Origin: Amphiscolops sp. MND2022
Taxonomy: Eukaryota
Assembly: GCA_964187785.1 (NCBI GenBank)
Contig: OZ076409.1
Span: 15,626,001-15,690,000 of the forward strand
Length of the DNA stretch: 64,000 bases
Reading direction: 5' to 3'
Positions within the stretch are counted from its first letter, which is position 1. The number at the start of each line of letters is the position of its first letter. The notes under the pieces were generated by a model. That model searched no databases. It was not told the DNA's origin and worked only from the letters and a program-made list of their open reading frames with translations. The translations under genes were made by a program, and so were the position numbers. This document shows positions 26,717-59,264 of the stretch, piece after piece.

Positions 26717-29700
26717 TCACTTCCTAGAAAAGTTTCGCTGACTTGGAGGAACCTTGGCCACTTCCCTCTTTGTTTCTTCTTTCCGGAACACGAGGAAAAA
26801 CTGTTTCCGGAAGTGGCTGCTGGCGAACATGTAAGAGAAGAAGTTCACAGAGTGGTTCAAACACGACAAAAGTCCCTGAAAATTCGGAGACATGGTTATT
26901 TATTACAGAAAATGTAGGAGCCGGAAATTTTAGTCATTTGATTTAGTCATTTTAGTCATTTGAAATTTTAGTCATCCGAATTTTAGTCGTCAGAAATTTT
27001 GTCAGAATTCTCGTTGTCAGAAATTTCGTGGTTTTGTTGAAATATGCTGGGAACTGCATAAGTTGTCACCCCGCTTAAGGCTCAAAAGAGCAAGTACTTC
27101 AAAGTGTCAACGATTCTTTTTTTGAATGAATTCTCATTTTCACAGTTCCAAAAACCCAATGCAGGGACTTTTTTTGCTTTTATTCTCACCAGTAATATCA
27201 GAAAACGAAAACTTTCCTGCTTCTCTTCCTACCAGAACTATCAATTTTTTCGGATATTGAGTCAAAAATTCAGATGTAGTGTGCTTTTTTCGACTCTTAC
27301 AAGAGATATTGCGTCGAAAATTTGGATATAGCGCAATAGATTGTTCATATCATAGAAAAAGCAATTAATTCAGTTCGCTGTGCCAAATAGTACTTTTCAA
27401 CATTTTAGAGTTTTGTAGAACTGTGTTCATCAGTTCGTGTGGATTGAAAAAAAAACGACGAAAAGCCACAGTAATAATTGTGTTTCATTTTCAATAAAGC
27501 GCCCATCAATTGACAGTGTATTCTAATAGTTAGCAATTAAGTTATTTAAGTACTTATTCTTGAATTTGAGAACGAGCTTCAATTTGTTACTTCCATTAAC
27601 AACATTATTAAGGCTAAAAGTTGATTGCATTCAAACAAATCAAAACGTCTCAGACGATTACTAGGAAACGGACTGTTTCTTGTTTCTGCGCTGAAATATT
27701 TCAACAAAGTACAATATAAAAATTGCTTGAAACTTGCAGGAAAAGTTCAAATATGCCTAGAAGTAAGGTGTCAAGAATTATGTGGTAACGCTTGATGTTC
27801 TATGAACAGTTGAATTGATGGTTTGTTCTCAGTCGATAATAATAATACTCACTGATAGCAACTGCTGTTATTGTATTTTTTGCATTTAAAAAAATAACGT
27901 CGCAGAGTACTGAAATCACTGAATTAAGGTGTATAACTTTATTTTCGAAAACCGTGTTTTCTAAATTGCAAACATCAAAAACCGAAATAGCGAACCTGTA
28001 GTAGAAGATATTTCGTAAAAAAATCACAGAGCTCAAAAAGGTAAGTCTTTTCCTCCATTTTGGAGAAGGCTCTCTCCAGTTCCACAAGACCAAAAAGTAA
28101 CCAAGGAGATCACCAGACTCAGAAAATTTCATAAATCCAAAATATTGCAAACAATTCTATCAGATAGTGCCAAAGTTCCCTTGAGTATACCCTCTACCTT
28201 CGCAAGCATAAGAAAGTATGTTGTAGTGTCCAACATGTGTTTAGAAGGCGAATCCCTCAAAAGCAATCTTACATTACAAAGCACAGAATTAAACATACTC
28301 AACTTACTTCTGAACCATCCTGTTGGTATTGCAGAAAAACGAAATCTACCTACTTTGTTATTGGGTATCCCATCACAGCGAAAGTGAATTCCAATCATTT
28401 TCGAATAATGAGTCACTTGAGATTATACAAAAATTAGTTCGACTGAAAAGAAGTTGCTTTGTTAGAAAAGTTCCTTAGGACCATTCAACAATTAATTCAA
28501 GTTGTTACTGATAGCAAGCTATCTGGTAGAAACTGATTGTCTTTCATTAACGGAAAAAACTATTTTAGAAGTGTAATGGAAGATTTAGTGTTATAGCTGT
28601 TAGTTCCTTGCAGGTTTCATCTATATGACTCTAAAAAGATACTTACTCCCAAAACGTTCAAGAGTTCATAGATGTCAGGTTGTCGATAAGTATCTGTTTT
28701 GAAGATGGCAGTGGTAATTAGACAGCTTCCAATTCCCAAGTTCAAAACTAGGAAACACACTGTCGCAATTAGCAGAGAAATTGAAATTTCTCTTTCCCGC
28801 CGTCTTACGGCTCCTTTCATTGTCTTCAATTTGTAAACTATGAGAATGTCGGAAAGAAGTATGCTGAAAAATGGGGTCCCAATCATTCCCACAAAAATAG
28901 TCCCAAATGCATAGAGGTCACGCTGTTTTTCAGTGAAGAATCCTTTTCTTGCTACAAAGCAGTCAGGATATAGAAGGTCGTAAAAGACGAATACTGGGAC
29001 AAACATTATTGTTGTGATGCATTGCAGAATTATGGTTGTCCAAACAGATACTTTTGGTTTGCCATATGTTTTGTAGGCAATAGGGAACCACAAAGCAGCG
29101 ACCCTGTCGAACGACGAAAATGCCAGTACGTAGTTGGCTGCAACAAATTTAACACGGTCTGTTAGCTGCTAAAATCGGCTCAAATAAAAATTGCAACCAT
29201 TGAAAAAATGGCGACAATTACCCAATAATTGAAAAGTCCGATTTTTAAAAATGTACTGAAACAGAGATTACCTCTAAATATCTTAATGGGAAACTCAGTC
29301 ACAAAATTAATTGTTTGATTTAAAAATAAATTATTTTGTTACTTCATAAAAGTTGTGCGAGAGTCAAAAATCAAACGTTTTTGATCGATGGCTTATCTAA
29401 CTAATGTTCGCGTTTTCTCATCACAAGACGGTATCTTCTTGAAACCGAATTCATATAGAACAATTTGGTGGTTGTTGCTAAGGACCAGTTTTGTGTAGAG
29501 ACGTTTTTTTCGAATTAGTTGTTTGTATATGAAAATTTGTCAGGCATTCAGAGCGTTTCTTTCATTTTATTTTCACAAATTAAAACTAACTTTGTGGCAG
29601 GGCTGTCACAAAAAGAGTTTAAAAGAAACTTTAAATTAAAAACAATTAAACTGTCAACAAACTGTCAATCATAGTATGCTCATTTATACAGTTGTCTTTG

Positions 29701-32700
29701 TAATTACTAGTGTTGGCCAATAGTACCAGCAAAACCATAGACCACAAAAGAGATGGTAATTCACTTTGCCACATGGTCTTGATCGAGAATAGAATCTTGC
29801 TTAAACTCTTTTCTTTGTTATCTAAACAGAATAACAGTTACTGAGAATAAAGAACCCTGTAACATGGCGCTGCGACCTGACTCATCTGGAGGACCTCAGG
29901 CGATTGCAGGACTTCCAACCTACTGGCAAGATGCCTCCAAAAACACTACATTAGAATGGGAAAACTGGCGAGATTTATTTGAAGTGGCATTTATGGCCAA
30001 AAACAATATATCCATTGCTGAAATAATAAAAACGGGAAATAAAGACAAAAGTTTAATGGGTGACCTCGACGAAGTACTAGCTACAAAGAAAGCTATAAGC
30101 GTACTTTACCTTGCTTTGGGATCCGCAGGACGCACATCAATTGCTGACAAGTTTCCCACTACCAATATTGCCACCGTATCACTCCCAGATTTGTTAAAAA
30201 ACTGCAAGGACTGCTTTGAGAAACCCAAGAATGAAACCCTTGATCGCTTCAAATTCTTGCCCCGAAAACAAAAAGAAGGAGAATCGTTGAAAAACTTCTG
30301 GAACGAATCAAATGGATTAGCAGCAAAATGCAACTTCGGCGCGATAACAGACAGTTTAGTAAAAGACGTCTTCACAGTGAACATGATAAATCAAGATGTA
30401 CAACAAAAACTCTGCACAGAGCCAAAAGCAACAGCAACAGAAAGAATCCAAATCGCAATTGCTTACCAAAAGGGCACTCTGAGACAACAATCGTTTGGTA
30501 CGCTAGATAAGCCAAATATAAAACCGAAGCAACGGACGTGAATAATATTAACCAAACCAACAAACTAAATAAGGCTCGAATATTGATTGCAGACAAAGGC
30601 GCAAAATCACTCATTGGACATGATTGGCTGAACGCGTTCAACTACAAATTCGTGTCTCCATCAAAAAGTGAAGGTAACAAAGCTATTTACACAATTAAAC
30701 AAAACGCTAAACAACCAAATAAAACAATACAACCAGGTAAACAGAATATTTCAGAAAGTTTGAGTGATAATGATAATCACAACGAAAAGATTAAATTACA
30801 AAACCAATTTCCCTCCTTATTCACTAGACAAGGACAAATTCGCGATCATACAGTTAAAATAGAGTTTGAACCAGAAGCTAAAATAACACAACAAAAAGGT
30901 AGACGAGTTCTTATTCAATTACAAGACGCGGTACAAGAAGAAATTGAAAGGTTATTAAACGAAGGAAACATCGAACGAGTAACCGATGTGACGGATAAAC
31001 AATTTATCCAACCAGTTGTAATCACAGTAAAACGGGATAAAAGCGTAAAAATCGCACTCGATGCACGTGCGTTAAATAACGAACTGATCAAAGACAAATA
31101 CCAGATGCCGAATTTAGAGCATCTCGTAGACATGGTAGCAGAACAATTAGATAACTCAACAAGCGGACAAGCGTGGTACACTTCACTAGATGTGCGCTAT
31201 GCCCATGGTCAAGTACCATTGGACGAAGAAACTGCACGTCACTGTAATTTTCAAATAATAGGCGGCAAGGCAACGGGTACACATCGCTTCATCACAGGAT
31301 TTTATGGACTCACAGTGATGCCAACAGAGTTCCAAAAAGTTATGGATAAAAAACTCTCCAACATTGCGAATACGTATGTTTTCTTAGATGACATACTAAT
31401 AGTGACTAAAGGTAACCAAACAGATCATTACACACAAGTAAAAACAAGTATTAGAAAAACTTGATGAAGCAAACATACGATTAAAATGGGAAAATGCAAG
31501 TTTGCACAAAGTGAAGTTGAGTGGTTAGGGTATCACCTAACACAAACAGGAATACGACCAATCAATGCAAAAATTCAGGCGATAACTGATAAATTGTAAC
31601 CGAAGAATTTAAAAGAACTCAGATCATACTTGGGCGCAGTGAATCAACTAAACAGATTCATGCCAAATTTAGCACAACTATGCTTTAATCTACGCCTACT
31701 ACTAAAACAAGATAAACCATGGAGCTGGAACGAAACCCACGATAAAGCTTATGAAGAAATAAATAAACAAGTCCAAAAAGTCCCTGAAGTGGGCCACTTC
31801 AAGAAAAGTAGAAAAATAAGAATTATTTGCGATGCCAGTAAAGCCGGTTTAGGTGCTGTATTACAACAACAAGAAGAAATTGGTTGGAGACCAGTTCACT
31901 TCGCCTCACGTTTCCTTACACCATTAGAAGAAAAATACTCAATTAATGAACTTGAGTTATTAGCAGTTGTTTGGGCGGTCGAACATTTTAAGAACTACCT
32001 ATATGGAATAAAATTCCAAGTTGTATCCGACCATAAAGCACTCGCTACAGTTTTAAAGAGCAACAAAGGTAATAGAACATACTCGAGTAGACTCACTCGA
32101 TGGGATGATTGCTTACTTCCATTCGATTATGGAATCTTTCACGCTCCAGGCAGAACAATTGGCATTGCGGACTATCTATCACGACATCCATCTCCAATAG
32201 AAGGCGCAAGCGTGAAAGCAGACGAATTATGGAACAACTGGTTCACAGTGAACCATGTAAATAATGTAAATAGCATTTTAGCTGAGGAAATCAACGGACC
32301 AATCAGAAGCCGCAAATGGATCAAGCTGAGACGCGACGATGCACGCAGTAAAAGTGCAAACACAAACGATTCATTCAAAACACGTGATGAACAGCAAATA
32401 AACGATTACCACAAAATGGGCCAATTACATTCAACAGATACGCTCAAAGGTAATCCAATTTCCAGTCTATTCGAATCAAAAATTCCTATTGCGAACAAAA
32501 TTGGGGAAAACCTATTAATTGCCAATTAAACCCTACAGAAAATTATTAAATTAGTGAAAAATTCCACCAAATCAAAAATCAAGTAACTCGACAGCCCATG
32601 GCTCGAACGTTTTTCTTCACTATCATTAGACGAAAACGACCTATTGTATCTAGATGATCGATTGGTTATTCCTAAAATCCTACAAAGCCCCATTAAAAAT

Positions 32701-35700
32701 TCCCCTCACTGGGGACATCGAGGCCGTGACCAAATGCTTCGACAAATAACAGTTATTTGGTGGCCACGTATTCATCGTGATATTAATTTACTTACACAAT
32801 CGTGCCCTGAATGCCAAAACGCAGGTAAATCAGTAAAACCCATTTTATCACAAAAACAATTTGGAAAAATCCCTACCCCAAAAACAATAAATGAAGACAT
32901 AGCTATTGAATTTGCAGGACCCTTCAAAATTGCTCACAGTACAAAGAAATATTTAATAGTTTCGGTAGACAGCAAATCAGGATGGCCTGACGCAAAATTC
33001 CTCAGAGCCCCCACTACAACTAAAGTAATAGAATTTCTTACCAAATATATAGCAGATAACGGAATCCCACGCCAAATCCGTACAAACCCAGGAACCGTTT
33101 TTAAAAGTGCAAACTTTCAAGAATTCTGCCACAAATATTTTTTTAAACATGTAATCTGCCCGGTGCATGACCATAGAGGAAATGTTAAAGTCGAAAGACT
33201 AATCTGTACAATAAATGAAAGACTAAGGGCAAACCAAAGAATTGTATTAGATAAAGATAATACAGGCTTGTCAGAATGGCTGTATGCACTACGAACCGCC
33301 CCCAAGGAAAATAAAATATCACCGGCAGAACTACATACAAGTCGAAAATTTACTACTGTCAAAGATATAATAACTACAAAACCAATACAACATAACTACA
33401 ATGTTTCAGACAACGACAACAACTTTGAGCTGACGATGAGCGATATCCCAGCGGACCAAGACTCTGAAATTCTGGTACGGGAAAGAACCAGAGGATCAAA
33501 ACTGGAAACGGCATATAAGAAAAAGAAGGGCCAAATCATCGCAGAAACTCCACATACAATCACAATGAAAGAACGCGGCAGGTCACTGCCAACGCTGTTC
33601 AGCAAACGTGAAGTGGCAACTTCACATAAATTGGCTACACCACAGCTGAACAAACAAAACATAAATGACCAATCAGCGAACGCCACCAATACCCAACCAA
33701 CCAAAACACTACAACCAAAGTCTCAAGCAAGACCAACAAATACAACTTTTCCAAAAAAGCCCAAGAAGAAAAACAGCAAATGAATTCCGGCGGAATTTAA
33801 ACGACTCGAAAAGTGGAGAGAAGTATTCTTCGAATCAGAAGACGAGGAGGAAGGCGAGAGAAGACAAAAAACTAAAGCCTCAACAAGTGCATTAAAAGCC
33901 ACGGTAAACTGGACAAAAACTGAACCAGAAGAACCCACAGAACATGAAAAACAAATCAGCGAACAAGAAACAGATACTGCAGATGAACCCGGCACCTCAA
34001 CTGGAGAGAAACGCCCACAACGAAATCGAAAAGCCCCCCAATACTACGGAGACGCCGTAATGATTTGTGGCCTAGACAAAGCAGGAGAACCAGAAATCAT
34101 AAACATCTCTTCTAGCGAAGACAGCCTACGATAAACAAGTCTAACGAACTACTACAGCCCTAGTTTTTGAGTTTACACATGTAAAGCAGAGATGGCCAAG
34201 AACTACAGAAGGAGGAGTATGGCAGGGCTGTCACAAAAAGAGTTTAAAAGAAACTTTAAATTAAAAACAATTAAACTGTCAACAAAACTGTCAATCATAG
34301 TATGCTCATTTATACAGTTGTCTTTGTAATTACTAGTGTTGGCCAATAGTACCAGCAAAACCATAGACCACAAAAAAGATGGTAATTCACTTTGCCACAT
34401 GGTCTTGATCGAGAATAGAATCTTGCTTAAACTCTCTTCTTTGTTATCTAAACAGAATAACAGTTACTGAGAATAAAGAACCCTATACCAAACTTACATA
34501 TTTGTTTCCATAATTTACTAACTGCAATTGATTTCATTCACATTAATTCAGCTAACAAAAAGATTGACTACTTTTTAAATAGGAATCAAGCTACCTACAT
34601 GAATTGAGTAAAAGCAGTTTTTACTAAAAGGCAGGTTGCAGAATCTCGAACAATTTTTCTAACCCGCTGAGGACGATGTACCTGTGAGAAAAAACCACAA
34701 CTTGCACGTGTACCGGTTGATCAGCGTGAAAGGGGCTTGAAACAGAAACGAGCCAGAGGCTAGTACGCCAACCATGAACACTGGGAAGGTGTCAGCCACC
34801 GCCAGGCACTTAATGAACGTGGTGCCTGATGTTTGCGAGCCCAAACGAGAAGCAGTCAAGTACGCCAAGCAGTTGCTAATCAGTCCAATTAGAGCTACTA
34901 CTACACTCAGGACCGACATCATGTATTGGATTATTAACAGGTCCACAACAAGTTTCGCTTCTTGTAAATAAGAAGTTGAATCGCCGTCACTTACACAACC
35001 TTAAAAAGACCATTTTGGGAACATAGAGTGTCAAACAATGGATAGAAGCGCAATCACAATGACAATCTCAGAAGTCAGAAAACTTTCTGAAGATTACAAA
35101 TAGCGATGAAGACTGTACATGGACCTTGCTTTTCTTCATTTGATTTTTCTCGAAGCCATTCTGAACACTGGAAGGAAGTTGAAAAAGCCCAGGTTAAACG
35201 TGGAAAAACGTGTTTTTCTTTTTTCGAACCAACTTCAAATTATCACCGCACGGAGATAATCTTCGAAGGTCGTCAGAGATATGTTTCTTTGATAGTCCTT
35301 CTATGTCAAAACAAACCTTTGGAGTTTCAAAATTTCCAAGCGTCATATTTTTATCCGCAAGAACTTCAAGGGAATATTTTTTCCCGAATGAGCAACAATA
35401 TTCGGAACTCCTTAAGCATTGGGGACAATTGCAAACTTAGTATGATCCTACACAAAATTTCAAGGCTCTTCCAACAGCAAGTTATTCACCCCATTTTTCG
35501 TGGACAATGAAGGGCAGACGGACGAAAAAAAGTAATCATCACTCCAACGTTTTCACGTCTGAATCAGCAAAGTTAAATATCATTATGATCTCGTTACTCT
35601 GAACTCTATAAAATAAAATGGAACGATACTCTCAAATATGAATGCCTTGTAGAAATTCTACGCCCTTTCAGTTTTAAAATTTGAATGCACTGAAGGTTGC

Positions 35701-43735: not shown

Positions 43736-44917
43736 GGATTTATATAGCTTTATATATGATATTTTTGAAATTGCATACATTTTCAGGTTTGTCTTGATTG
43801 TGTTAAACTTAACACCTGGTATAATGGAAAGTTATTAGCGGATATTCGTGGATCACAAAGAATGAAACTATCAGAACGTCAACAGAATTCGTTGACTCTT
43901 CAAGTTTTGCGTACTGATTTTGGTTTTTGAACGTGTGTCATACCCTTGCTTATCATACCCAGCAAAGTCTTCCCCTCATAATTTGCAGAGATGTCGCTCT
44001 TGGAATTTGCAGATCTAAGGCTGCTGACCAATTTTAAAATTTTAACGAAAAAGAAAATGGAAAACGGAAAATGATATTTATAACGGAATCCGTTAACGGA
44101 TTTGTAGAACTGGTCAGCACTGGTCTCTAATCTCTTCAAGCTGTTTAGATATGTTTTGATTGGGTTCACACGTGAGAAATTTAATCTCTGGAGTTCTGGT
44201 GTCGGTATCATTTTCACTGATTGTGTTTTCAACAGTATCTGCTACAGACCTCAGTTCATCGCTCCGAGAATTCACGTCATTTTAAAAAAAGTATTCGATA
44301 CTAGATCACTGTTGAGTCCTTTTTCTGGCCATTTTGACAAGCTTCTCTACTTCAACGTCATTTTTTTTTCGGAATATGACATTGTCAGACCAGCGGTAAT
44401 TTTACATTCACAGCGTTTGTCTTTCTAGGGACGGCATTTCTGGAATGAATCAGGTATCGTCACAACAGTTTGATTTATAATGATTGATGTGTTTACATCG
44501 GACTAGGAAAGCCGTGTGTCAAATTTACAAGTTCAAGGGTTCAAATACTCCTTTTATTGACATGACATGCGTTTTTCATGCGCCATAGACTGGAAATAGC
44601 AGTCATCAAATTACCGGTGAACACAAAGAAACGCAACGTACAAAAATTTTCGATCTCTCAAAGTTTCAAATTTTTATCAACAAAAAATTCAAAACATCTT
44701 TGAACGCTGCAAACAATCTTTCAAGTTTGCAACTTTTCTTCGAAGCGAAAGAACTTTCACACATTAAAAGAGGGAACCAAGTGACTGGTCAAGACGTCTA
44801 GACTTTTTATGATGGTTCGAACCATCCTGAGTTGAAGATGGGATTACGTAACAGCAGCTTCATTCTAAATGACTGACACAAAAAATTGAACGATTTTCAG
44901 TTTCTTGCTTACAAATA

Positions 44918-45645
44918 AGTAGTTAGCGAAATGCCGTTATAGGCCAAGCAACCAAAAAATTTCAAATCCCCAATACCCCCCTTTAGAGGCCCAACCAACA
45001 AAATTCAAAACAAATCAATAAAATTAGGCCGATTCGGGTCAAGCAACAAAAAATTTCAGAAGACCCAACCCCCCCCCTTTTAGAGGCATTTTTCCAAAAA
45101 CGAATCAACAAATTGGTGTTTTTACCAATGCAATGTAAAAGCAATGTAATATAAACAACTGGCGTGGACATAAATTTAGTTCCAATGGCTCAGTGGTTAG
45201 ACCACTAGAATTTTACGTTCGCGCAGCTTCACACGTGTTCGAGTCCGCGACAAAGCATATTTTAATTTAGCCATTAGTGGAGGGGGGTATATAAGGAAGA
45301 TAGTATATTATTTTTACTGAAAAGTTACTCATTGCTTAAAAGGATTTGTCATCCTTTCCTCCGCTTTCGAGCAGTATTGGCAATAGTAACGTGAGCTTTA
45401 CCAGGACACACTTTCGGGAGGGGAAAAGATTGTGTGTTACATAAACTGGAGCTCTATAGTGAATTAACCAGTGCGAGGTAAAATCCTGTGTAGTTAATTT
45501 GCGAGCAGTGGACAATTGTAGCACATGGAAAATAGTGTCGGTCGACGGAAGCCGCGTTAAGCTTTTGCGTTAAGCTTTCGCGTTAAGCTTTTTCGTTGGG
45601 CTTTTGCCTTAAGATAAGTTGCCTAATACCTCAACGGGAAACGAT
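44918..45645 (+). repeat. Polinton left TIR
   Basis: Reverse complement of ~58349-59042; 13-bp GCGTTAAGCTTTT repeats at the inner end; left copy has ~20 extra nt near the tip. Confidence 0.93.
45178..45263 (+). ncRNA. putative tRNA-like RNA polymerase III unit in left TIR
   Basis: A box TGGCTCAGTGG 45186-45196, B box GTTCGAGTCC 45237-45246, TTTT 45260-45263; no clean cloverleaf. Confidence 0.45.
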
Positions 45646-45727
45646 GTTTGAGAAAAACGTCAGAAACAAAAGTTATAGAGTATTCACACATAACAATGAA
45701 AAAACACTAATAAATGAATTATGTGTC

Positions 45728-46149
45728 ATGTCAATACCTCTCATTCAAAGAATTTGTTGAAAAATACAGACTAAAAAACGAAGCAACTTCTAATGTAAAA
45801 ATAAAAGAAATATGCTTCGCGCCTCCAGTGAATTAGGCGCTGCTTCGCACACAGCGTGTGGAATATACATCAGAGATGATAAGTTTACCACTCCTTCAGG
45901 TCTAGTTAACTTACATCGAACTGAAGGAACACATTGGGTCATGTTTGTTAACGAGTTCTATTTTGATTCATATGGATGACCTCCAACTAATGTACTTAAT
46001 CACATTAAAAAAGGTATCTATTCAGAATATCAATTTCAGACCGACGACAGTTATTGTGCAGCGTATTGTTTATATGTTTTATATCTCACAAAAATTATAG
46101 GCTTCAAAAATGCAGTACTAAATTTACACTATCAAACTTTCAAACCTAA
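45728..46149 (+). pseudogene. Polinton adenain-like cysteine protease
   Basis: Manual translation: GLVNLHRTEGTHWVMF..FYFDSYG*PP...YQFQTDDSYCAAYCLY (His, Asp, Gln, Cys motifs); internal stop; not in the ORF track. Confidence 0.85.
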
Positions 46150-46353
46150 TGAATGAAGAAAATTAATAATTATTCAGTTCAATATAAAATTATACATTTT
46201 CATAGAAATAATCCGAATCCGCGTAGCTTCGCGAATAAAAACCCCGAAGGCGAAAGCTGGCGCGCTTCGCATAAAAAAATATTATCAAAAGATAGGCAAG
46301 AATTCATAAATAACATAGCTGCTAGTGGATTCAAACAATTTAATCTATAATAA

Positions 46354-47411
46354 ATGGATCTATCAACCTTGGTATTTATTGATAAAAAAGAATATCTTCT
46401 TTTAAGTATTGCAAAATCTAATCAAGAAAATGTTAAAAATACTTATTCTAAACCACAAAAAACTCTAGAATTTAAAATGACCAAACAAAAAGAATTTTTC
46501 TCATTTGATGTTCCTCTCAATCTAGAAGAAAAGTCGATGATGGGGGTAACAAGTTTAGAAGTATACAACACCGTATATAATTTTACTGAAAAGAATAACA
46601 AATACAAAATCTTCTCAATTATGAACAACTCGATGAACTTTAGTTTGACACTGAAGTGGTGCCGAATATAAGAACTATATGAAATTTATGATTTAGAAAG
46701 TAATAAACTTTACTATGAATATATAGAAAAAGCTAATATATTTTCAACTACTAGTTCTAAAAAAAGAAGAAACTTCCAAAAAAAGGTTTTGACTATTTAA
46801 AGCAAATAAAGAGCAACACTGCTATAACTATTCCAAACTTTGAAATTGAGAATAAGTTAATTGAAATACAGTTAGTACCAGGTGTATACGAACTGATTGA
46901 AATAAACAATGCCATTAAGCAAATAATCTATGATTCGGATTATGACTTAGTTGACAAATCAAAATTCAGAAAAGATCTTGCAGTTTTTAGTTTTGAATTC
47001 AACATAATACCCGACACAATATCAATGAAATCAGTTTTAAAAACCTCAAATCCGATTAATTTTAACTCCGAATTTAACAAAGTCTTGGGATTTACAAACA
47101 AGGATTACCAAGCAGGAACTCACACTTGATAAAAACCAGTTATGATAACAACCACAGACAAAGTTCATCTGAAGTCTGACTGCGTAGATGGTTCAATTGT
47201 TAATGGTATACGAGAACAAATTCTATTTTCATTTAATTTAAGCGCACCTCCCGGATATAAAATAATAAAAGAACCCACAACTGTTTTGTATAAAAAGATA
47301 AACAAAACACGACTGGACACCATCCAATTTTTCCTTGAAGACTCCAACCACGACAGAGTTGATTTCAACTGGGAGACATTAACATTTACCAAGTTGATTC
47401 TAGTATTGTAA
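46354..47411 (+). pseudogene. Polinton minor capsid (penton-like) protein, frameshifted
   Basis: PLNLE..MGVTSLEVYNTVYN start and VHLKSDCVDGSIVNG...LFSF...PGYKI...IQFFLED...VDFN end, typical of the Polinton penton (from recall). Confidence 0.7.
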
Positions 47412-47470
47412 AAATAATTTCCAATCTTCTTAATGACAAAAACAAAAGTCAGTTTAGTTTAGAACCAATT

Positions 47471-48035
47471 ATGGATAATCCAAATTTTTTCACGATTAAC
47501 CCCTCCTATCCACAACAAGTTTTAAATAAAAATTCTACACTAACCTTCTTGGGTAGTGGTAACATATATGATCTAAATGACCCAAGTCTTCAATATTTTA
47601 TAACTAATACAAAATTTGATAGAGAAAAAAATAACAAGAACATAATTTATAGTTTCCTAAATGATATGAATTATAACATGAAGTATGGGGATAAAAAATC
47701 AATGAGATATTATTTTATTAAAGATTTGCATATTCAATACTATCAATTGGGAAGCGGATTGCCGAGCTACGCGCGAAAGCTATCGCGAAAGCTATCGCGA
47801 AGCAGTTCACAGAGCTACGCGCAAAAGCTATCGCGAAGCCATGCAAGTCAGTCCGTCTTCCTCTCATCTGATCCAGACGAATTAAGGATCAATTAAAACT
47901 TCTTTCTTTTGAAAAATTAGGAGGAAATGACAACCCTCAACTCAATGAACAAATCGTAGCAATTGCAGATAAACTATTGGAGTATGAATGCATTACAACA
48001 AATCAACACCAAAACATGATCTCCTCAATTATTTA
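47471..48035 (+). pseudogene. Polinton hypothetical protein, frameshifted
   Basis: ORF 47471-47896 continues after a shift as LKLLSFEKLGGNDNPQLNEQIVAIADKLLEY. Confidence 0.5.
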
Positions 48036-48625
48036 AAGGATCAGTTTGTGGAATAAAGATCTTGTAATTTGAATTAGATTCATTACAAATCCTGTAACTA
48101 CTCCCATTTTTATCTTCCGATCTATTTATTAATAAATAATTGAATTTTTCGTTCCATGCTTCACTGCACAAACGTTTGAATTCCCCATAAGAAATATCAA
48201 AACCTGCTATGTCCCTATGAATGTGTTCTACATCTTTTAGTGTTTGTTGAAATAAAATTATTATATTCGAATTGTTTCTAACTGTCTTTTTTGGTGCATC
48301 AAAATTACCCTGACATAAATAATAAACATCACACAACTTGTGTCTTCCTCTTGTAAAAAATGGATCAATCAATTTCTGGTTGGAGTGTAACATATCATCA
48401 AATACTACACAACACCCCCTATACTCTTCCAAATCCCCCACATTTTCTTCCACTTCTATTCCTGGCGAAGCTCCACCAATATCAATTTCCTCATATTGTT
48501 CCGGACTCCTCGTAATGATACGAATCTGTTTCTCAGGATCTTCCAAACGAATAAATCGTAATTTATTCAACAACAAATGAGTCCTACCACAAATTGATGG
48601 ACCAACTATTAATGTTCTATTACAC
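48025..48625 (-). CDS. A32/FtsK-like packaging ATPase 1
   Basis: NRTLIVGPSICGRT (Walker A, K changed to R) just upstream of the tracked ORF, VVFDD (Walker B), FFTRGRH, YYLCQ, VRNN. Confidence 0.85.
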
Positions 48626-49052
48626 TTATTATCATTATCATTATTATTTCTATTGTTGTGGGAACCTGCGTGGGAACCAGCACGGGAAGCAAGTCACCAT
48701 CAGTATGAGCAGGAACCTGCGCGAAACTACGCGAATAGCCTTGCGAATAGCCCTGCGAATACCCCTGTGTGTGAACCCGTGCGAAGCTATGCGAATAGCC
48801 CTGCGGATACAAGTGTTGTTTCTTAATGTGGGATCTTAAATAACTGTTATTTAATTCCTTATTACAAAATTCACAACTTACCTTTTTATTAAAACATTCT
48901 TTACAAGTACTGTACGTTTTACCATTTTTGTATGAATAGAAGTCCATCTTCATCTCATTACAAACTTTACATCTTTTTTTACTAGAGCAATCATCACACA
49001 CATTACTCTCACTACATTCATTACAGATTAAACATCTTGTTATCGTACTCAT
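48609..49052 (-). CDS. Cys-rich zinc-finger protein or domain, probably the N-terminus of ATPase 1
   Basis: CLIC, CDDC, CKVC, CKEC, and C2H2 CEFC...HIKKQH, then QGYS repeats. Confidence 0.7.
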   Translation of the reverse strand: MSTITRCLICNECSESNVCDDCSSKKRCKVCNEMKMDFYSYKNGKTYSTCKECFNKKVSCEFCNKELNNSYLRSHIKKQHLYPQGYSHSFARVHTQGYSQGYSQGYSRSFAQVPAHTDGDLLPVLVPTQVPTTIEIIMIMIISVIEH

Positions 49053-49317
49053 TTATTCAGTAAAAAATCACTAATAATCACCAATAATCACTCAGTATCA
49101 CTATGTAATCACTATGTTGAATCACTATGTATTCACTATACAATCACTAAGAGCATTTATTTTTTTAAGATTGAAGAGTATAGTGAAATTTAGAGAAAAT
49201 AAATGCTCTTAGTAATGCTTTGTGATTGTTTAGTGTTTCTATAATCACTAATTACTCAGATCTCTAAGAATCACTAAACAATCACTAATTACTCTAAGAA
49301 ATCACTATGGTTTCACT

Positions 49318-50277
49318 AAACATTATTTAGCTTATTTTTAGTAAAACTTTTTGCATGATCATATATACTTTTCTTAAAGTCCTCTTTAATTGAATTACTA
49401 ATTAGTGGTTGTTGCATACGCTCAACGTTGTTGTCTATTTTGGATTAATTCACGTTTATTTTCTTTTGTTTACAATAATATACATATTAAAAAGCTATGT
49501 TGTACGGTGTTATTTCAATTGTCTGGTCAGACATCTCCTCTAAAAATACCTTGAGTTTGTTGTATTCCTCACCAGTGAAAAAGTAACTTTCATAAGCAAC
49601 ATAATCTTCAGGGCCACACTTATGCTGTTTGCTAGAATCATAAATTAAATTGTATTTGTTGTTTAGTGTTTTGTACTTCTGACTCCTAGTGTCAAATTCA
49701 ATAATACCAAATTCTAACTGATCTCGGTATTGTTTCCACCTGTTAAGAATACTAGCATCCTTGATTGAATAGGTTTGTATTATGGTTTCAAAAAACTATC
49801 TGGGTTATTAATTGTTATGTAAATTTGAAACAATTCTCTCTTACAACAGGGAGAACATCCTTTTCATAGTGAGCAAGGTATATCACTTGAATTCCATGAT
49901 GTCTACCAAACCTAAATAAATCCTCTACTTTTGTTTTAAGACTTTTGTATGCACCTGCATCAAGCAGTATAACCGTTTTATTAGCAAGTGATTCAATGCC
50001 TATTGTTTCTAACTGCAACAAGGGTATAAAGTTGGAAGCAGGAAACTCTTTTTTATCTCGTCCAAATACTATGTAACTTCGTCTGCGAAGCTCTGCAATC
50101 TGTGACAAATAATGCTTTAGGAAAGATGTCTTCCCTGACGCACTACTTCCATAAATTAACATATGACAGTTTGTATTACTGACTGGTTGAGTTAGCGCTT
50201 CACCTTCTTGGTTTGCAAGATGAGAGTATTTGAACCCTTCAAATTGTAATAGTTTTCTATATATTTTTTTGTACCAT
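49318..50277 (-). pseudogene. A32/FtsK-like packaging ATPase 2, frameshifted
   Basis: HMLIYGSSASGKT (Walker A), VILLDAG (Walker B remnant), LFRFGRH, VIYLAHY, VREN; continues after a shift to ~49318. Confidence 0.82.
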
Positions 50278-50499
50278 TTAGGGCGAAAATAACGCCAGTA
50301 TACTATGAAGATAATAACAAGTATTATTATAAAATAAAAATAAACATTGCGTAGCTTCGCGGATTAATTTTCCGTAACCAACTGGCACGTTCGGTAGTGC
50401 GCCAGCTTTCGCCTTTGGACACCTTTGTGTCTTCCACCGAATTCTTGCGAGAACATCTGTGATAATCATCATTCATTTGTTCAGAAAAAAATTGTTAAA

Positions 50500-51383
50500 A
50501 ACGAATCGAAATAAGAAAGAAATCGCTAAAGCAATCACTAAAGAAATATTCTCTCTTTTGTAATCAAAAAGTTTCAAAGAATTCAAATACAAACTCACTA
50601 CAAAGATGAGTGTTGGAGTATTGATTTAATTGACCGCTCAAGTTTAAGCAAATACAACAAAAACTACAAGTTTATATTCACAAAAATTGACAATCATACT
50701 AAACATGCATGGGCGATTCCTCTTGAAGATAAGTCCGGAAAAATACAACAACTGCATTCAAGAATTCATTGGAAACTAGTGAAAGAAAACCACAAAAAGT
50801 GTGGAGTGAAAGAGGTAAAGAGTTTTACAACCAGACTTTTTTACACTACTTAAACGAGCAAAACATTCAAATTTATTCAACCTTTTCAGATTTGAAGGCT
50901 GTTTTTGTTGAACGCTTCAATAGAACACTTCTGAACTTAATCAAAGAACCAATGTTCATTGAGGGTAAAGGTAACTGGTTGAATCACATTAATATTGCTC
51001 TGAAAAAATATAATAATCGTGTCCATGGCACAACAAAAATGACACTTTTTGAAATGAGTTTTAATGAACCAATACCGCGAAGCTACACCAATCTGATACC
51101 CAATAATTATAATAAAATACCTAATATCCAAGTGGAGGATTTTGTAAGAGTTCCTGACAAACGCAATGTGTATAGTAAAGGTTATACAACAAATTGTAAT
51201 AGAGAACTTTTCAAAATGCACAAAATTATTTCAACGAATCCTGTAACATACACTTTGGAAGATGAAAACAAAGAAATTATTCAAGGAAAATACTATGAAC
51301 AAGAACTTTTAAGAAGTATATTCAACTTTGACTTCAACAACAAAACGTTAGAAAGTATGAATATTTTCCACAAATTGGAGTAA
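50500..51383 (+). pseudogene. Polinton retroviral-like (rve) integrase, frameshifted
   Basis: WSIDLID...IDNHTKHAWAIPL, KVWSERGKEFYN, KAVFVERFNRTL, YNNRVH, SKGYT, YYEQEL. Confidence 0.92.
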
Positions 51384-51418
51384 GTTTCCAACAATTTTCA
51401 CATAATATTTTATTATCA

Positions 51419-52686
51419 ATGAATTCTATAATTTCAGAATCAGTGGATACCCCAATGTTTTCTTTAAAAAGTAAATACTTACTCGAAAAACCTATTCATA
51501 AATATGATTTTATAAAGTACTCACCGAGTAGTTTGGCGACAATCAAACAAAATAATTCAAATTTTTCATTCAGCTTATCAAGAAAAGATGCATACATATG
51601 TTTACAAAACTCATATATAAGTTTAGAATTTGAAGTACTTAAAAACGATGATACAAGATTCAATGACGATGATGAAATAAGCTTGGTTAACTTTGGGCCC
51701 ATTGCTCTATTTAGTGAAGCTAAACTGACAACATCTAGTGGAAAACACCTAGAAAAAGTTGACAATTTGCATCCATATTGTTTAATGTATAAACTTCTGA
51801 CAAGTAGTCAACAAACTTCCCAGTTGATGTATGGGTTTGAAGAAAGTACTACTATCAGAAGACAAGAACTAACAAACAATGAGACAGAGAAAGAAACCTT
51901 TTTTGTGAGAAAAAAACTGAAAGACTTGTTTGGATTTGCGGATCAAGAAAAAATAACTTATGGATTGGGGTACACTCTTACTTTAAAACGGAACACTAAC
52001 AATGATGTTGTCTTTCGTACCAACGGTGTGAATGCTGCAAAAGTAGTTGTAAAAGACATAAGTTGGTATATTCCACACTACGTTCCGAGCTTAGAAAACC
52101 AACAACTTGTCATGGACCAAATTCTAAATAAAGACCCAACCGAGTTGAATTACACTGAACGTACCGTTTTTAGAAAAGATGTTAACACCAATAACGATTG
52201 GACATTTGAATTAGGTAATAGTGGTGGCGAAGCTGCACAACCAACACCAACTTTTGTGATTGTTGGAATCCAAGCTAGAAATAAAATTGATTCACAAACA
52301 CACGATAAGTCAACATTTGATAGATTTTCGGTTAGTAAGGCTGTTTGTAAAATAGGATCAGAAAAATATCCCGATGATGGAATAGACTGTGACTACGACA
52401 AATATGATCAAGCATACAGGAAAATTGAAAACTTTTATCACTTAAAAAGTGAAACTAACCTACTCAACCCATTTATTGATTTGCACAAATTCAGAAGAAG
52501 TTATAAAACTTTTATGTATTTGATTTATCCAAACAAAAAGATCACATTGCGAGTCAACCAATCCGTTTAGAATTTCAATTTTATGCTGCTTTTGGTGTAG
52601 CGGATTGTATAGCTTATGCCTTGGTTCCAACCCCAAAGTTAATAAGTATTAGTAGTGATGGCAAAGGCATTTTTATTTGATATGAG
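51419..52686 (+). pseudogene. Polinton major capsid protein (double jelly-roll), frameshift near the 3' end
   Basis: Beta-rich ~420 aa; ALFSEAKL...GKHLE, ISWYIPHYVPS, PTFVIVG, then FYVFDLSKQ in the shifted frame; size and position fit MCP. Confidence 0.78.
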
Positions 52687-52728
52687 AGGAATGATGAATT
52701 ATAATAATGTTATAAAAATGTATCAGAT

Positions 52729-52975
52729 TATGATAATAAATGATGATAATAAATGATGATAATAAATGATGATTCAAGGGTGAATGATAACAAATGATGA
52801 TAATAAATGATGATAATAAATGATGATAATAAATGATGATAATAAATGATGATAATAAATGATGATAATAAATGATGATTCAAGGGTGAATGATAACAAA
52901 TGATGCTAATAAATGATGATAATAAATGATGATAATAAATGATGATAATAAATGATGATAATAAATGATAAATGA
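52729..52975. repeat. 13-bp minisatellite (AAATGATGATAAT)n
   Basis: Many tandem units with two TTCAAGGGTG interruptions, between the convergent MCP and PolB genes. Confidence 0.92.
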
Positions 52976-53034
52976 TAGAGTACAATTAGCTTCGCGTAGC
53001 TTCGCGCAATCATAAAAGATGTTTGTCACGCCAG

Positions 53035-56000
53035 TTATAACAACAAATGGGCCCGATCACTTATCAGATTTAAAAGATCTTGATGATTCAATTTTTCTTT
53101 CAGAGTCCAAATGTTATAGTATATTTCTTCATCCCAGAGGCTTGTGCCATCCCTTGTGCTCAAATCTTTATAATTCAAACCAATAAATTTCAAACAATAT
53201 ATACAAGGACAATCACCTTGCTGGGTGTGTTTGTCCCAAGATAAACTTTGTTTTGGATTTAAGTACACTTGCTTGTCATCAGAAGGATTCAAAGCTAGTT
53301 TGTTTTGTTTCTCCACACTTAGTTTGTGTAAATTAGATCTAATTGAATAATTTGTTGCACTTGTTGTTCGGACATAAACAAACAACGTGTGTAATCTTCA
53401 CATTCAGGGGCTTTTTGTATTCCTTTTTGTTTCGCTTTTTGAATACTATTATAACTAAAAAATACGACTTTGATCGTAAAGCTGTGAAGCTATCTAACAC
53501 CAAAACTGGACTTGTTTCAATTTTCATTTTTCCTATAACTTTTTTGTTGGTTGGGTTGTACAGTTGATGAGCATTGTCTAGTTCACTGAAATCAAATTCA
53601 TCTTCGTTTTAAAAACTTAATTAAATTTTCCAACTGACTGTCAAAACTAAGAACAAAAGAATCTGTATCCATGTAGTGATGTTGTACTTTATTTTGCCAA
53701 TGTGGTTCTAAAGTATTGTAATAAAATTCATACCTTAGTAACTTACCTAGTTATAAAACTGTAAAACCTAAAAAAAATTGGTTTATCAAAGACTGTTTTT
53801 TCTCTATCAAATTTGTACACACTAAACACACTGTACCAATCCACAATACCTTTGAAACCTAACTTGGATTGTCGTTTTATTATTTGCTGTATTTGAGAGT
53901 GATCAATGAATTCTAGATTGACACGGTCTCTTACATTTTCCATAGTCTTACCAAAGAAAGCATTATTCATTAATTTGTACAAGTCTTTTTCAATGTTTGT
54001 TTTTGCTTTGGTGCGTTTTTGGGTGTTATGATCAGTGTATTTTGCTAACCATGGACTTTGCTTGAAGCGGTAGATTGTGTTAATGTGTGTTACTTTCATC
54101 CCCATTTTAGTGTAAAACTTGAACATCCTGTAGTGTATCATATATTTTTGTTTGTTTGTTAGGCCACACACAAGTTTCTGTGTTGGTTTGTAATTGTGCT
54201 GTTTTACACTATTCATATAATCTGAGAAACACTCTGGATCTGCTTTGGTTTGATGAGGACAAAGTGGAAAGTTTTCGGTTTTTTCTTTAATTTCAGATAG
54301 AAATTCTAAATCACATTCTATGAAGAATCCATATGGGTTGTTGTCTGGAATAAATCTAAAATCTTCTACTAGTTGTTCTAGTTCATACTCTTCTGGAAAA
54401 TATAGTTTTTCAAATGTGCCTGTAGGAAGGTGTTGACTCATTGCCCATCCATAAAGATTATTAGCGTCGATGTACAAGATTTGTTTATTTTCGTTTGATT
54501 CAACAAATCGATCACCCATGACACTTGAAATTCCTCCACGTATATTATTTTCCAATAACAGTAACAAGTGTTTATCTTTTATAAAGTCTAATTTTATTTT
54601 AGTCAACTTCAATCCTGCTTTCCATGTATACCCAGGAGCTGAGAAGGAGTACAATGGATTGATGCCATACTCTTCAGTGGATGTTTGCACAAAGTTCTCA
54701 AAGATATCAGTTAGTTGAAGGACATCCATTTTTAAGTATAACATAGTAAGTTGTTGAGGTGTTGTAATGTTGTATTTGTCAATTATTTGTTGGGTTCTTT
54801 TGATATCATCATCATACGGGTAAGATTGTGTTAATGTTGACCAATAGTCTTCTTTTGTTAGATTTAAATGTTCTTGGAAATTATTAGGACTGAATTTCTC
54901 ATATGGGTAGGCTAACTTCTTCCTAAACAAAACATCAATTAAACCCTCACTATTCATATACTTAAGAGTATCCAGAGATGCTATAAGTTTTTGTAGACTA
55001 GAAGAAAGAAATCGGTTTGAATCTAAAAATCTCAAACAACCTACTTGGACTGATACATAGTTTTCCATTGATTTTGGTATTATCGTCAGATTATAATTTT
55101 GATTGAATTATTCGGTTAGCAGTTGTTCAAAAATTAAATGCAATCATATCCAGAAAAGTTGTGGAAAAATATGGGAACAAATGAACTTCACTTTTTTACA
55201 ATTTAAATTACACCTGTTGTGAGCTGCTCCTCGGTACTTGCCTGTAAGATGATCGTAATCTCGAACTGTATCCTCACCGAGTGGATTTTCGCAATGCCAG
55301 CATATGGTAGATTGTTGAAAAGATTCTTTTTCTTCGGGGGTCATTTCAAGAGGAATATTAGTTTCGAAATATTCCGATGTAATTTTTTCTAACGTCAACA
55401 TTTCATTTACAAACTATGTTACGGCGCTTTGCGTAGCTTCGCGTTGGCCTTCGGTGCCTTCGGCAGTGCGATCTACTCCAAAGTATGAGTAGTACTCTTT
55501 CCCAAACGGTGAAATTAGATAAAAGCCTACTGCAATTGGAATTTGTTTAAATAAAACTTTGGGCGCGATAGCTACCGCAGCTTCGCGGTCACCTTTGGGC
55601 GCAGCTTCGTGGTCATCTGTTGGTTGATTAATACATTCAAAATCTGCATATACTCTCATTGGTGCAAGAACTTTCATATGATAATCTTCGAACTTAAAAT
55701 GATCCTTCCTGCTGAATGTGATTTTAGTTGGTTGTTGTTTTTCACAACAGTCAATGTGTTGATTGAGAATATCCTCAGAACTAAATGCAGTTAGACATCT
55801 TCTACACACCCATATCATGTGTGAACTTTTATTTATTAGACAGTGCCATTTTGTTATTAGGCAATAATGATTTTCAAATGGTAGCAAGTCAATTTGTGGT
55901 TCTAAGTAATTTTTCTTAATATGAATTGGTGCTGAAACTGTTCCGATGAGTTCAAAAACATTTACGTTTCAATTTTTTAAGGTTTCGAACTTGGGAATGT

Positions 56001-56919
56001 CTTTAACTTTCATAGGGAATTCTAATCCTTTCAGTTCGAGTTTGTTCATATGCAGTGAATAACTTGATGTTCTATTTTTATGATCCTCAACGGGACAAAG
56101 ATGTGCTAGGATGCACCATAGAAAACAATATTGATCATCATTTTTTATATTTATAATTGATTTAATATTCTTATATTTTTCTGGCAACTCAATGTGTGAA
56201 GAAGCTTGAATATCATTGACTTTATATATTTTTAATATAACATTGACAATACCGTTTAACACGAAACCTCATCCTTCTAATTGTTCATCATCTAATTTCT
56301 GCATTAATGTGTTGTGAATTGTATGATTTGTGCCGGAGGTGCTTTGCATGTGATTATAATTAAAATCTGAATCAACCCATTTGTGAAATACATTTTCTTC
56401 TCAATTAACTATTTTTGAAAACTTAGCTAAATAACTCAATTGATATTTATATCGGGGAAAGTAATTTTTATCTAGTAGTTCATTTATGTGATGTTCGAGA
56501 TTTTGTGTGTTAGTTGGATTTACTCTCAGTTTAATGTATGTTTTTTCATTCACAATTATTTTTACTCCATGCGATGCCAGTGAAGCTGTATTACCGAAGG
56601 CATTTTCTTGACTAATTTGCGTAGCTTCGCGATAGCTTTCGCGGTTGTTTTGACTTCTTAACGTGTGATTTTCACTTTGGAAATGTCTTGTTTTATCACT
56701 AATGTATTTACCACAATCATCACACCAAACTTTCTGCTGTTTAGTTTTGTTCTTGTGTTGGTCTGAACTTAAATGATTTGACTTGTCTGATAGGGGCATA
56801 AATTTATTACTTTTTTAACAATAATATTGATTTAATTTTTCTGAATGTTTTACTGATTTTAGTTGATCAGACTTGAAAGCTTTCTTATATTCAGAATTAC
56901 AGAGACTACAGTTCTCCAT
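53035..56919 (-). pseudogene. protein-primed family B DNA polymerase with N-terminal zinc fingers and an endonuclease-VII-like insert, fragmented
   Basis: YADFEC, DYDHLTGKYRGAAHNRCN, RFLDS, YIDANNLYGWAMSQ, KLMNNAFFGKT, HYMDTDS (~53660-53680); N-terminal CDDC...H fingers. Confidence 0.95.
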
Positions 56920-57036
56920 TTATTTGTAATAAATTTACGAATTTAATAGCAGTATATGTTTCAAAAGTATAAGTTCAATTATTGAGTGGTAATTTTTATT
57001 TTATTTTTCATGTTAAAATTGAATAAATTAATTCAT

Positions 57037-57486
57037 CTATAGAAATTCATCTATGTGTTTATCTTTTAAGCTAGTGGTAAATAATTGTCTAAAGTCATCA
57101 AGTGTTTTCTGAACAATATTGTACTTAAATTTATAATTTTGCTCCTTTTTCTTCAAATAACTGGAACAACTTCTAACAAGAATACCAGTTGCACAACCAA
57201 CTCCTGCAGTGATTGGAACAACTATAATGCCCACACCAGTAATACTTAGTGTAACGGATGCGGAAGTTGTTCCTATTATTATAGCACCATCTGTTGAGTT
57301 AATAATGTTATTTATTAGTTTGTATTTGGTGTATTTTTTCCTATATTTATTTTCTTCCAATTCATAATATTTCATCATTAGACTAATGTTTTGAATAGAA
57401 TTATTGAAACTAGATACTTTTTGTAATTCGCTTTGCAATCGCCTATTTATCATTGATTTTACATCATATGGTGCAGAGGGGGTCAT
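57037..57486 (-). CDS. Polinton protein with coiled coil and hydrophobic hairpin, function unknown
   Basis: PSAP at the N-terminus, Gly/Ala/Ile/Val-rich stretch AIIIGTTSASVTLSITGVGIIVVPITAGVGCATGILV between basic helices. Confidence 0.65.
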   Translation of the reverse strand: MTPSAPYDVKSMINRRLQSELQKVSSFNNSIQNISLMMKYYELEENKYRKKYTKYKLINNIINSTDGAIIIGTTSASVTLSITGVGIIVVPITAGVGCATGILVRSCSSYLKKKEQNYKFKYNIVQKTLDDFRQLFTTSLKDKHIDEFL

Positions 57487-57514
57487 TGAGGGATAGAGTT
57501 TTTGTTCCTTTTAT

Positions 57515-58231
57515 TAATCATATGAAATGAAATTTATTTCCGTTGGGGTTAATTTCATTCTGTGTTTCATATCAACAAGGTCTTTATAGGACTCTTTTTT
57601 CAATGACTCCACAATTGATTGTCTGGTAGAATATTCTAAATCAGACAGATGATATTCATCTTCTGAAGTAGGTATTGTTTTTCCATACTTTTCCTTTAAA
57701 TAGATTTCACTGAAAATTAGATAATTTGCAAAAACTTGATCTTTATTGGGAAAAGAATCGAATAAACTTTTGTCATAAAGCAGTTGAATTATGTTGTTAG
57801 CTATAGTAATTTTGTTTTGATCAGGCTATAAAGAGTATTATTCATTTCATTTTCACTTAAAATCATTCCAGCTTGACCTGGAGTTGACATAAACTTTAAG
57901 TTACGGTTGTTAACATTTCAAAACTATGGTTGTGTAAAAAATTTAGTACTTCTTTTACTAAAGCAGTTCCTTGTTCGGCGAAAATTTTTTTCATATTTTG
58001 TTCTAACTTATTTGTGGTTTTTGAAAGGTCTGAAAACTGGGAATATAAATCATTGAATAACTTTGCGTTTAATAAAACATTTTGAATTTCCTGTGGGTCT
58101 AGTATTTGGTCTAGCATTTTTTCTTCTATTAATTTCTCTTGATTTTCTATGTCATTTTCAAAATCACGTTGCAAATCTTCTTTTAATTCGGAATGGGTTA
58201 ATTGGGCTATTTTTTCTTGACTTTTTATCAT
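57515..58231 (-). pseudogene. Polinton hypothetical ORFs next to the right TIR
   Basis: Helical 111-aa ORF 57896-58231 and a frameshifted ORF starting MSTPGQAG at 57890. Confidence 0.45.
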
Positions 58232-58348
58232 ATCTTTCAGCTCCTGAAATTCTCTCAGTTTTAGCTGTTCACTAAAATAACCAAACTTATGAAGAGACGG
58301 AGTTTCATACAGTTATCAAGATGAAAAACTTAAAAGGGTGTCGAGAAA

Positions 58349-59042
58349 ATCATTTCTCGTTGAGGTATTAGGCAACTTATCTTAACGCAAAAGCTTAACG
58401 CGAAAGCTTAACGCAAAAGCTTAACGCGGCTTCCGTTGACCGACACTATATTCCATGTGCTACAGACGTCCACCGCTCGCAAATTAACTACACAGGATTT
58501 TACCTCGCATTGGTTAATTCACTAAAGAGCTCCAGTTTATGTAACACACAATCTTTTCCCCTCCCGAAAGTGTGTCCTGGTAAAGCTCACGTTACTATTG
58601 CCAATACTGCTCGAAAGCGGAGGAAAGGATGACAAATCCTTTTAAGCAATGAGTAACTTTTCAGTAAAAATAATATACTATCTTCCTTATATACCCCCCT
58701 CCACTAATGGCTAAATTAAAATATGCTTTGTCGCGGACTCGAACACGTGTGAAGCTGCGCGAACGTAAAATTCTAGTGGTCTAACCACTGAGCCATTGGA
58801 ACTAAATTTATGTCCACGCCAGTTGTTTATATTACATTGCTTTTACATTGCATTGGTAAAAACACCATATTGTTGATTTGTTTTTGGAAAAATGCCTCTA
58901 AAGGGGGGGGGGGTTGGGGTTTTTGAAATGTTTTGTTGCTTGGCCCGACTCGGCCTAATTTTAATGATTTGTTTGAATTTTGTTGGTTGGGCCTCTAAAG
59001 GGGGGTATTGGTTCTTTTGAAATTTTTTGGTCGCTAACTACT
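58349..59042 (-). repeat. Polinton right TIR
   Basis: Reverse complement of the left TIR. Confidence 0.93.
58718..58803 (-). ncRNA. putative tRNA-like Pol III unit in right TIR
   Basis: Mirror copy: A box 58795-58785, B box 58744-58735. Confidence 0.45.
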
Positions 59043-59264
59043 CAAATACGATTTTGAAGACGCAAACTTTTGAGCATTCTGTTTTGTTTGTTCACCTAGT
59101 TCACAACCTTCCAGTCATGGCTAAAAGTAGTTCTTCGAAATGTTTACGCTTTGACCTCAAGGCAACAAAGGGTCATAGGTTAGACATCAATACATGAACA
59201 ACTACTCGCACCCTTAAAGGAAAATTAAGACATATACATTTCCTTCCATTGGCACTTTGATAAA

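Follow-up and report, generated by a model that had tools for sequence, protein, structure and literature searches.

Polintons of the genome analyzed here keep a tRNA-gene-like module, consisting of a TATA box, an A box, a B box, and T-runs, near their ends in most of the sampled elements. Our leading explanation, which we rate as an even call, is that this segment is a Pol III small-RNA gene kept by the element and that its RNA acts in trans. The module was studied in one Polinton of the window, i.e., the whole stretch of 64,000 nucleotides under analysis, and in its relatives elsewhere in the genome. The host genome is animal-like, with U6 and tRNA arrays.

Overall Structure of the Polinton

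The element in the window is a Polinton of 14.1 kb, measured from TIR to TIR. Its long TIRs, AG-type tips, and perfect 6-bp target-site duplication are those of a Polinton/Maverick (Table 1). The corresponding gene set is also present: the capsid protein and the packaging ATPase were identified by Pfam, and the protein-primed family-B DNA polymerase and the integrase by eye only, in broken frames. Besides the A32-like ORF, a second ATPase-like ORF (48025–48693, minus strand) has a Walker-A-like motif by eye and no Pfam match. A GC-rich short near-palindrome is distributed throughout the Polinton (44918–59042); its core occurs 17 times in these 14.1 kb vs. 7 times in the other 49.9 kb. In sister copies, it takes the form of polymorphic insertions of 11–13 nt, including some within ORFs and tRNA-like units. 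The window further contains a hAT transposase ORF (96–1442) and an LTR retrotransposon with RNase H and integrase (29595–34490), the repeats of which are 98–100% identical and 4.6 kb apart.

Table 1. Features of the Polinton, in positions of the window.
Feature	Position	Strand	Remarks
Left TIR	44918..45648	+	Target-site duplication at 44912–44917 and 59043–59048
TATA box, 36 nt 5' of the A box	45150..45155 (mirror 58826–58831)	+	No variant common to at least two of 35 elements
tRNA-like unit, type 1	45178..45263	+	A box 45186–45196, B box 45237–45246, TTTT 45260–45263
Putative read-through part	45264..45315	+	Strand pairing weakly with the 5' end of the unit (45271–45282), G-run, second TATA, first T5
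Module B, TATA-led, ~250 nt, candidate structured RNA	45316..45566	+	Ends at TTTT 45563–45566
A32-like packaging ATPase ORF	49815..50363	−	PF04665, E 5.7e-5
Integrase-like region, two frames	50542..51383	+	By eye from translations; without Pfam match
Double-jelly-roll major capsid ORF	51332..52570	+	PF21738, E 1.3e-10
Family-B DNA polymerase region, several broken frames	53035..56814	−	Motifs by eye; without Pfam match
Right TIR	58346..59042	−	TIR comparison
Module B, mirror copy	58415..58665	−	TIR comparison
tRNA-like unit, mirror copy in the right TIR	58718..58803	−	A box 58785–58795, B box 58735–58744

Signals and Predicted Product of the tRNA-Like Unit

The initial annotation had placed an A box, a B box, and a TTTT in mirrored positions in both TIRs. 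This was confirmed. The combined A + B pattern has two matches in the window, which are the mirror pair, vs. 0.02 expected from 100 shuffles. As also annotated, the unit points inward and ends about 25 nt before a TATATAA box (45288–45294; mirror 58687–58693), the second TATA. The arrangement of A and B boxes at tRNA-like spacing is that of a type 2 Pol III gene, and the B box agrees in 10 of 11 letters with the consensus, which was taken from the accessible part of PMC3395662. The predicted start is 45178/45179. The left and right copies are indeed identical, but this identity is not special to the unit, because it covers 342 nt (45114–45455) and extends well beyond it. Among 15 other left/right TIR pairs, several of which had been chosen by their likeness to the unit, differences affect 20 of 1187 sites compared within the unit vs. 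183 of 5904 elsewhere.

The proposed product of ~85 nt could not be upheld for the window copy. A TTTT at 45211–45214, A-flanked and of the same length as the terminal TTTT, lies within the unit between the A and B boxes; thus, an 85-nt product is not assured. Following these two A-flanked T4 runs, the first T5 is found at 45311–45315 (about +134). Host tRNA genes and most of the host U6 copies inspected terminate in T5 or longer. Pol III would have to pass the internal run to transcribe the unit at all; if A-flanked TTTT is passed in this way, the window RNA would be ~138 nt long and end at 45315. A T5 is located directly 3' of the B box in 10 of the 31 type 1 elements read (type 1 being the unit type of the window), and these ten would end near 85 nt.

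The unit is not a recognizable tRNA gene. ARAGORN identified 0 tRNA genes in the type 1 unit, no Rfam family reached its gathering score, neither a tRNA nor a VA RNA was matched even at E ≤ 10, and by inspection only 3 of 7 acceptor pairs form, so that there is no cloverleaf. Folding was not better than that of shuffles (z +0.24 for 86 nt and z −0.03 for 139 nt). The likeness to VA RNA that had been suggested for the window copy therefore finds no support, given the lack of a fold, the internal TTTT, and the lack of an Rfam match.

Conservation within Type 1

Constraint was assessed in 35 type 1 elements chosen on their flanks, with nine TIRs having other outer ends dropped. The shared changes in the boxes are all consensus-neutral, being T/C at 45194 (2 elements) and G/A at 45241 (8 elements). 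Shared indels are confined to the spacer, the T-run, or the G-run and never occur in the boxes or in the stretch from the TATA box to the A box. Shared changes affect 2 of 22 box sites vs. 6 of 39 spacer sites (p 0.70), and consensus-breaking changes 0 of 22 vs. 6 of 39 (p 0.08). The spacer count of 6/39 was obtained after gap masking; the count of 12/39 before masking was inflated by misalignment beside an insertion. Neither contrast between boxes and spacer is significant.

Distribution across Polintons and the Five Unit Types

The exact 15-letter A-box stretch has 128 matches in the 1.07-Gb genome, mostly as inverted pairs 11–22 kb apart. By place, the first 30 matches comprise 28 in this TIR, one in a different Polinton-like end, and one in unrelated sequence. 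With 29 of these 30 in Polinton ends, the unit does not show the genome-wide dispersal without a host element that marks a tRNA-derived SINE, and it is not an ordinary SINE absent from most TIRs. Together with related units found at the same place in other subfamilies, this supports the annotated view of a Pol III-type unit kept by a Polinton family. Confinement to Polintons is nonetheless incomplete. Twenty apparent-singleton stretches, hand-picked and with two of them already among those first 30 matches, consisted of 9 TIR copies and 11 dispersed, diverged tRNA-like heads. These heads (L202, L205–L209, L211, L213, L215, L216, and L218) have a common A box and probably belong to an old host SINE family; a SINE-like source of the A-box stretch exists in the host genome.

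Twenty elements picked by capsid, drawn from 107 scored capsid matches (2710 candidates), include 15 with a unit and five with none. Among the 14 elements with both TIRs visible, the unit is present at both ends in four, at one end in eight, and at neither in two. The single-end units are always located downstream of the capsid gene. Hence, the placement in both TIRs described for the window holds for its family but not as a general rule. The Polintons at L105/L106 and L395/L396, with both TIRs visible and without a tRNA-like unit, offer a natural control lineage. At L201 (G000:C8:30687000–30692500), there are three tandem copies of a 1.27-kb TIR piece, in which a deletion fuses the A box to module B.

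Five unit types (1, 2a, 2b, 2c, and 3) occupy the same place in different subfamilies. Type 2a is the commonest: its 17-letter motif has 497 exact matches, and all 30 motif loci examined show the 2a unit, most of them beside Polinton end sequence and one (L234) without. Type 2b emerged from 28 TIRs chosen on the inner TIR, eight of which have a different outer TIR and, at the same place, a different A-box unit. Types 2c (L388) and 3 (L138) are represented by one locus each; an unrelated repeat adjoining type 3 overwhelmed the census of this type, and the association of its locus with a distant capsid (34% identity) could reflect a nested insertion.

The A-box consensus is TRGCNNARYGG. The A boxes of the five types vary at four positions, all of which are degenerate in this consensus, an outcome of ~5/330 if the variable sites were random. 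A TATA or TATA-like hexamer lies 34–39 nt 5' of the A box in all five types (degenerate in type 3), and this spacing holds even in types whose outer TIRs do not align. A pyrimidine–purine step 8–9 nt before the A box is likewise found in all five. No upstream TATA was present in the four host tRNA-gene flanks inspected; the host U6 copies of contig C2 have TATAT near −30. A canonical B box is confined to type 1. In types 2a, 2b, 2c, and 3, C replaces the invariant A, although the key C and the G/A toggle are preserved. An internal TTTT, here GC-flanked, also occurs in types 2b and 2c. Several host repeats were noted alongside: large tandem arrays of tRNA-Lys and tRNA-Ser copies in which the anticodon is often mutated (L171–L200 and L341–L352), U6 copies arranged tail to tail on C3, and U6 copies (L423–L432) with an upstream motif near −59, whose 7-letter core also occurs just before the 2a TATA at a different spacing.

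Type 2a and Module B

Type 2a is a module of ~250 nt that runs from the TATA box to the T-run and is tRNA-headed, stem-closed, and hairpin-ended. It occurs at several hundred Polinton ends (e.g., L228:1435–1690; also L091–L110, L141–L170, and L221–L250), and of the units it is the best candidate for a real, structured RNA. Across 30 loci, likeness goes up at the TATA box and drops at the T-run, although the drop partly marks the inner end of the TIR. The type 2a fold has a z of −4.14, with 0 of 200 shuffles as good. Its 11-bp terminal stem can form in full in 44 of 46 copies, and the shared changes in this stem (9 and 8 copies) all give G-U on the inward strand. The 3' hairpin, situated directly before the T-run, keeps its arms; 10 of 45 copies show a G-U change in it, and its loop measures 13–56 nt. 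With three or four independent changes, these patterns suggest a modest RNA-level signal. A hairpin just 5' of a short T-run helps Pol III termination in yeast, according to the accessible text of PMC9278858. A test for a covarying terminal stem shared by every type did not show one, the true pairing ranking 2nd of 24 permutations and only 2a being strong. The 2a-family outer TIR at L092:3640–3900 contains a tandem array of 17-nt near-palindromic repeats with fold z down to −12.6.

Module B, which follows the unit in the window, is common to types 1, 2b, and 2c, i.e., to three subfamilies, and is also found in a related organism. In L388, it is 94% identical, while the interior of L388 is only ~75% identical to the window's element, indicating either constraint or an exchange in the recent past. 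With limits set after inspection, three local hairpin domains beat shuffles (z −2.6 to −3.3); the whole stretch has a z of −0.63. The pair 45465/45496 is U-A in the window, U-G in L388, L158, and L159, and C-G in the related organism's contig. In that contig, matched insertions lengthen one hairpin and one other pair is broken. Module B has no Rfam match and lacks clear A/B boxes, and the host U6 upstream motif is not found ahead of it. Homology to the 3' half of 2a was rejected, as 476 of 500 shuffles scored as well. Stronger within-family constraint was also rejected: the figure of 1/141 shared sites was biased by copy choice, and an unbiased set of 36 elements gave 7/141.

Proposed Function and Alternative Explanations

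As an element-kept small-RNA gene, the unit would bind TFIIIC and TFIIIB, and Pol III would initiate at the purine 8–9 nt before the A box. Whether or not the A-flanked TTTT is read through would set the length of the product at ~138 or ~85 nt in the family of the window; in the commonest family, it would be an RNA of ~250 nt that is closed by a stem and ends in a hairpin. During element expression or replication, an abundant U-tailed RNA might then draw off, as a decoy, RNA-binding defence proteins of the host (Dicer/Argonaute pathway, La, and dsRNA sensors); this is the most speculative step, and a defence role could be proposed only by analogy to VA RNAs, EBERs, and TMERs. The doubling in both TIRs would be a by-product of TIR length. 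RNA contigs of the related organism (three runs of one sample, a small share) cover neither type 1 nor 2a, which is not evidence of absence.

Alternatively, the unit may act as DNA, i.e., as a TFIIIC/TFIIIB landing pad that opens the element end or stops the spread of heterochromatin, with the RNA being incidental. This is unlikely. Type 1 does keep both boxes without a fold and lies 25 nt before the second TATA and module B, and yeast B-box elements bind TFIIIC and serve as barriers (PMC3395662, accessible part). Yet the unit flanks both sides in only 4 of 14 elements and is found at one end in eight and at neither in two, which favors a trans-acting gene over a two-sided insulator. Moreover, barrier sites rely on the B box, and it is from this consensus that the commonest type deviates, while keeping RNA-type stems with G-U changes. 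Single-end placement and a weak B box with kept stems thus disfavor a two-sided TFIIIC barrier, and the insulator idea of the initial annotation is weakened, even though the window's own family carries the unit at both ends.

A captured tRNA-derived SINE head that is a passenger, carried from one end or subfamily to another as TIRs homogenise and recombine, is also unlikely. It would account for the 11 dispersed, mutually diverged heads that carry the exact 15-letter stretch outside Polintons (20 picked), the nonsignificant within-family selection, and the exchange of modules between subfamilies; furthermore, SINE capture into terminal repeats has been proposed for Helenus/Ajax in the accessible part of PMC10886601. 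However, the five diverged types retain only consensus-allowed A boxes and the TATA spacing, the 2a stems are kept, and no donor tRNA or SINE matches beyond the boxes (z −0.4 to 1.0 for Ser-AGA; z 3.4 for the best of 52 comparisons). A tRNA-Ser origin, suggested by eye, was unsupported against a box-keeping null, and the dispersed heads, host tRNA-Ser, and host tRNA-Lys gave no convincing match to the units beyond the boxes. Outside this genome, capsid searches of viral and metagenome contigs found no relatives, and DNA-pattern matches in such contigs (1, 41, and 48 loci) had no similarity other than the pattern itself. Quite unlikely is a third explanation, in which the TATA boxes serve as promoters for RNA polymerase II and the leader of the first inward genes begins with the unit or with module B. 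A TATA box ~28 nt before a pyrimidine–purine start suits Pol II equally, both TATA boxes face inward, and the host U6-type upstream motif is absent 5' of module B. Nevertheless, Pol II needs neither A/B boxes nor T-runs at module edges, L105, without a unit, has its first ORF directly after the TIR, and strong hairpins and upstream ATGs precede the ORF in the 2a module.

Comparison with Known Pol III Systems

To our knowledge, Polintons have been described almost exclusively by their proteins. No report of Pol III units in Polinton TIRs was found in literature searches at the level of titles and abstracts; "tRNA" has 0 occurrences in PMC8097293 and one in PMC8502044, where a figure on other midsize viruses shows predicted tRNA genes. 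Viral Pol III RNAs are called "not widespread" in the accessible part of the review PMC4378190. If the small-RNA gene is real, a Pol III RNA module kept in hundreds of copies and several Polinton subfamilies would offer, as one abundant small RNA, a cheap read-out of Polinton activity and a candidate route for escape from small-RNA silencing. It would also allow testing whether VA-type RNAs arose in the wider adenovirus–Polinton lineage or repeatedly from host tRNA genes.

PKR, the main target of VA RNA, is a vertebrate protein; therefore, any defence target of a Polinton RNA must differ. As far as the accessible parts of PMC4378190 and PMC8223928 describe them, adenovirus VA RNAI/II and EBV EBER1/2, which are viral Pol III genes, resemble the unit in their intragenic A and B boxes and in ending at a T-run. 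EBER1/2 also share the added upstream TATA-like element, and the tandem of two small units may have a counterpart here. Unlike these RNAs, the window unit has no Rfam match, is unstructured and shorter, and resides in a TIR; its Pol III transcription is a prediction from sequence. Indeed, VA RNA is ~160 nt long and strongly folded with a terminal stem, whereas type 1 has a z of ~0 and 2a folds with a terminal stem but is ~250 nt long; no match to the Rfam VA model was obtained. The TMERs of murine gammaherpesvirus 68, as presented in the same two sources, resemble 2a in having a tRNA-like 5' portion with hairpins and a T-run behind it. However, no cloverleaf was recognized in 2a, its A box is not triplicated, and its arms of 11–14 bp are too short for a typical pre-miRNA.

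Other systems share the promoter rather than the product. The yeast tDNA/ETC/IR B-box barriers (PMC3395662, accessible part) are similar to type 1 in their canonical B box and position at an element boundary, but Polinton units also have an A box, a TATA box, and a putative terminator, are often at one end, and, in four of the five types, deviate from the canonical B box. In the Helenus/Cassandra/Ajax TRIMp3 elements and SINE2, a tRNA-derived Pol III promoter likewise lies within the terminal repeat of a mobile element (PMC10886601, accessible part). These elements need the promoter for an RNA intermediate, whereas a 14-kb Polinton, replicating as DNA, does not; thus, retention of the unit needs another reason. 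Collectively, the unit would work like a viral Pol III RNA gene, although its sequence features place it outside VA RNA, tRNA, and SINE. We tentatively suggest, as a possibility we still doubt, that animal Polintons carry swappable Pol III small-RNA genes at their ends, one a tRNA-headed RNA and the other a TATA-led structured RNA, and that the strategy of VA RNAs and EBERs thus extends to integrated relatives of adenoviruses and to invertebrates without PKR.
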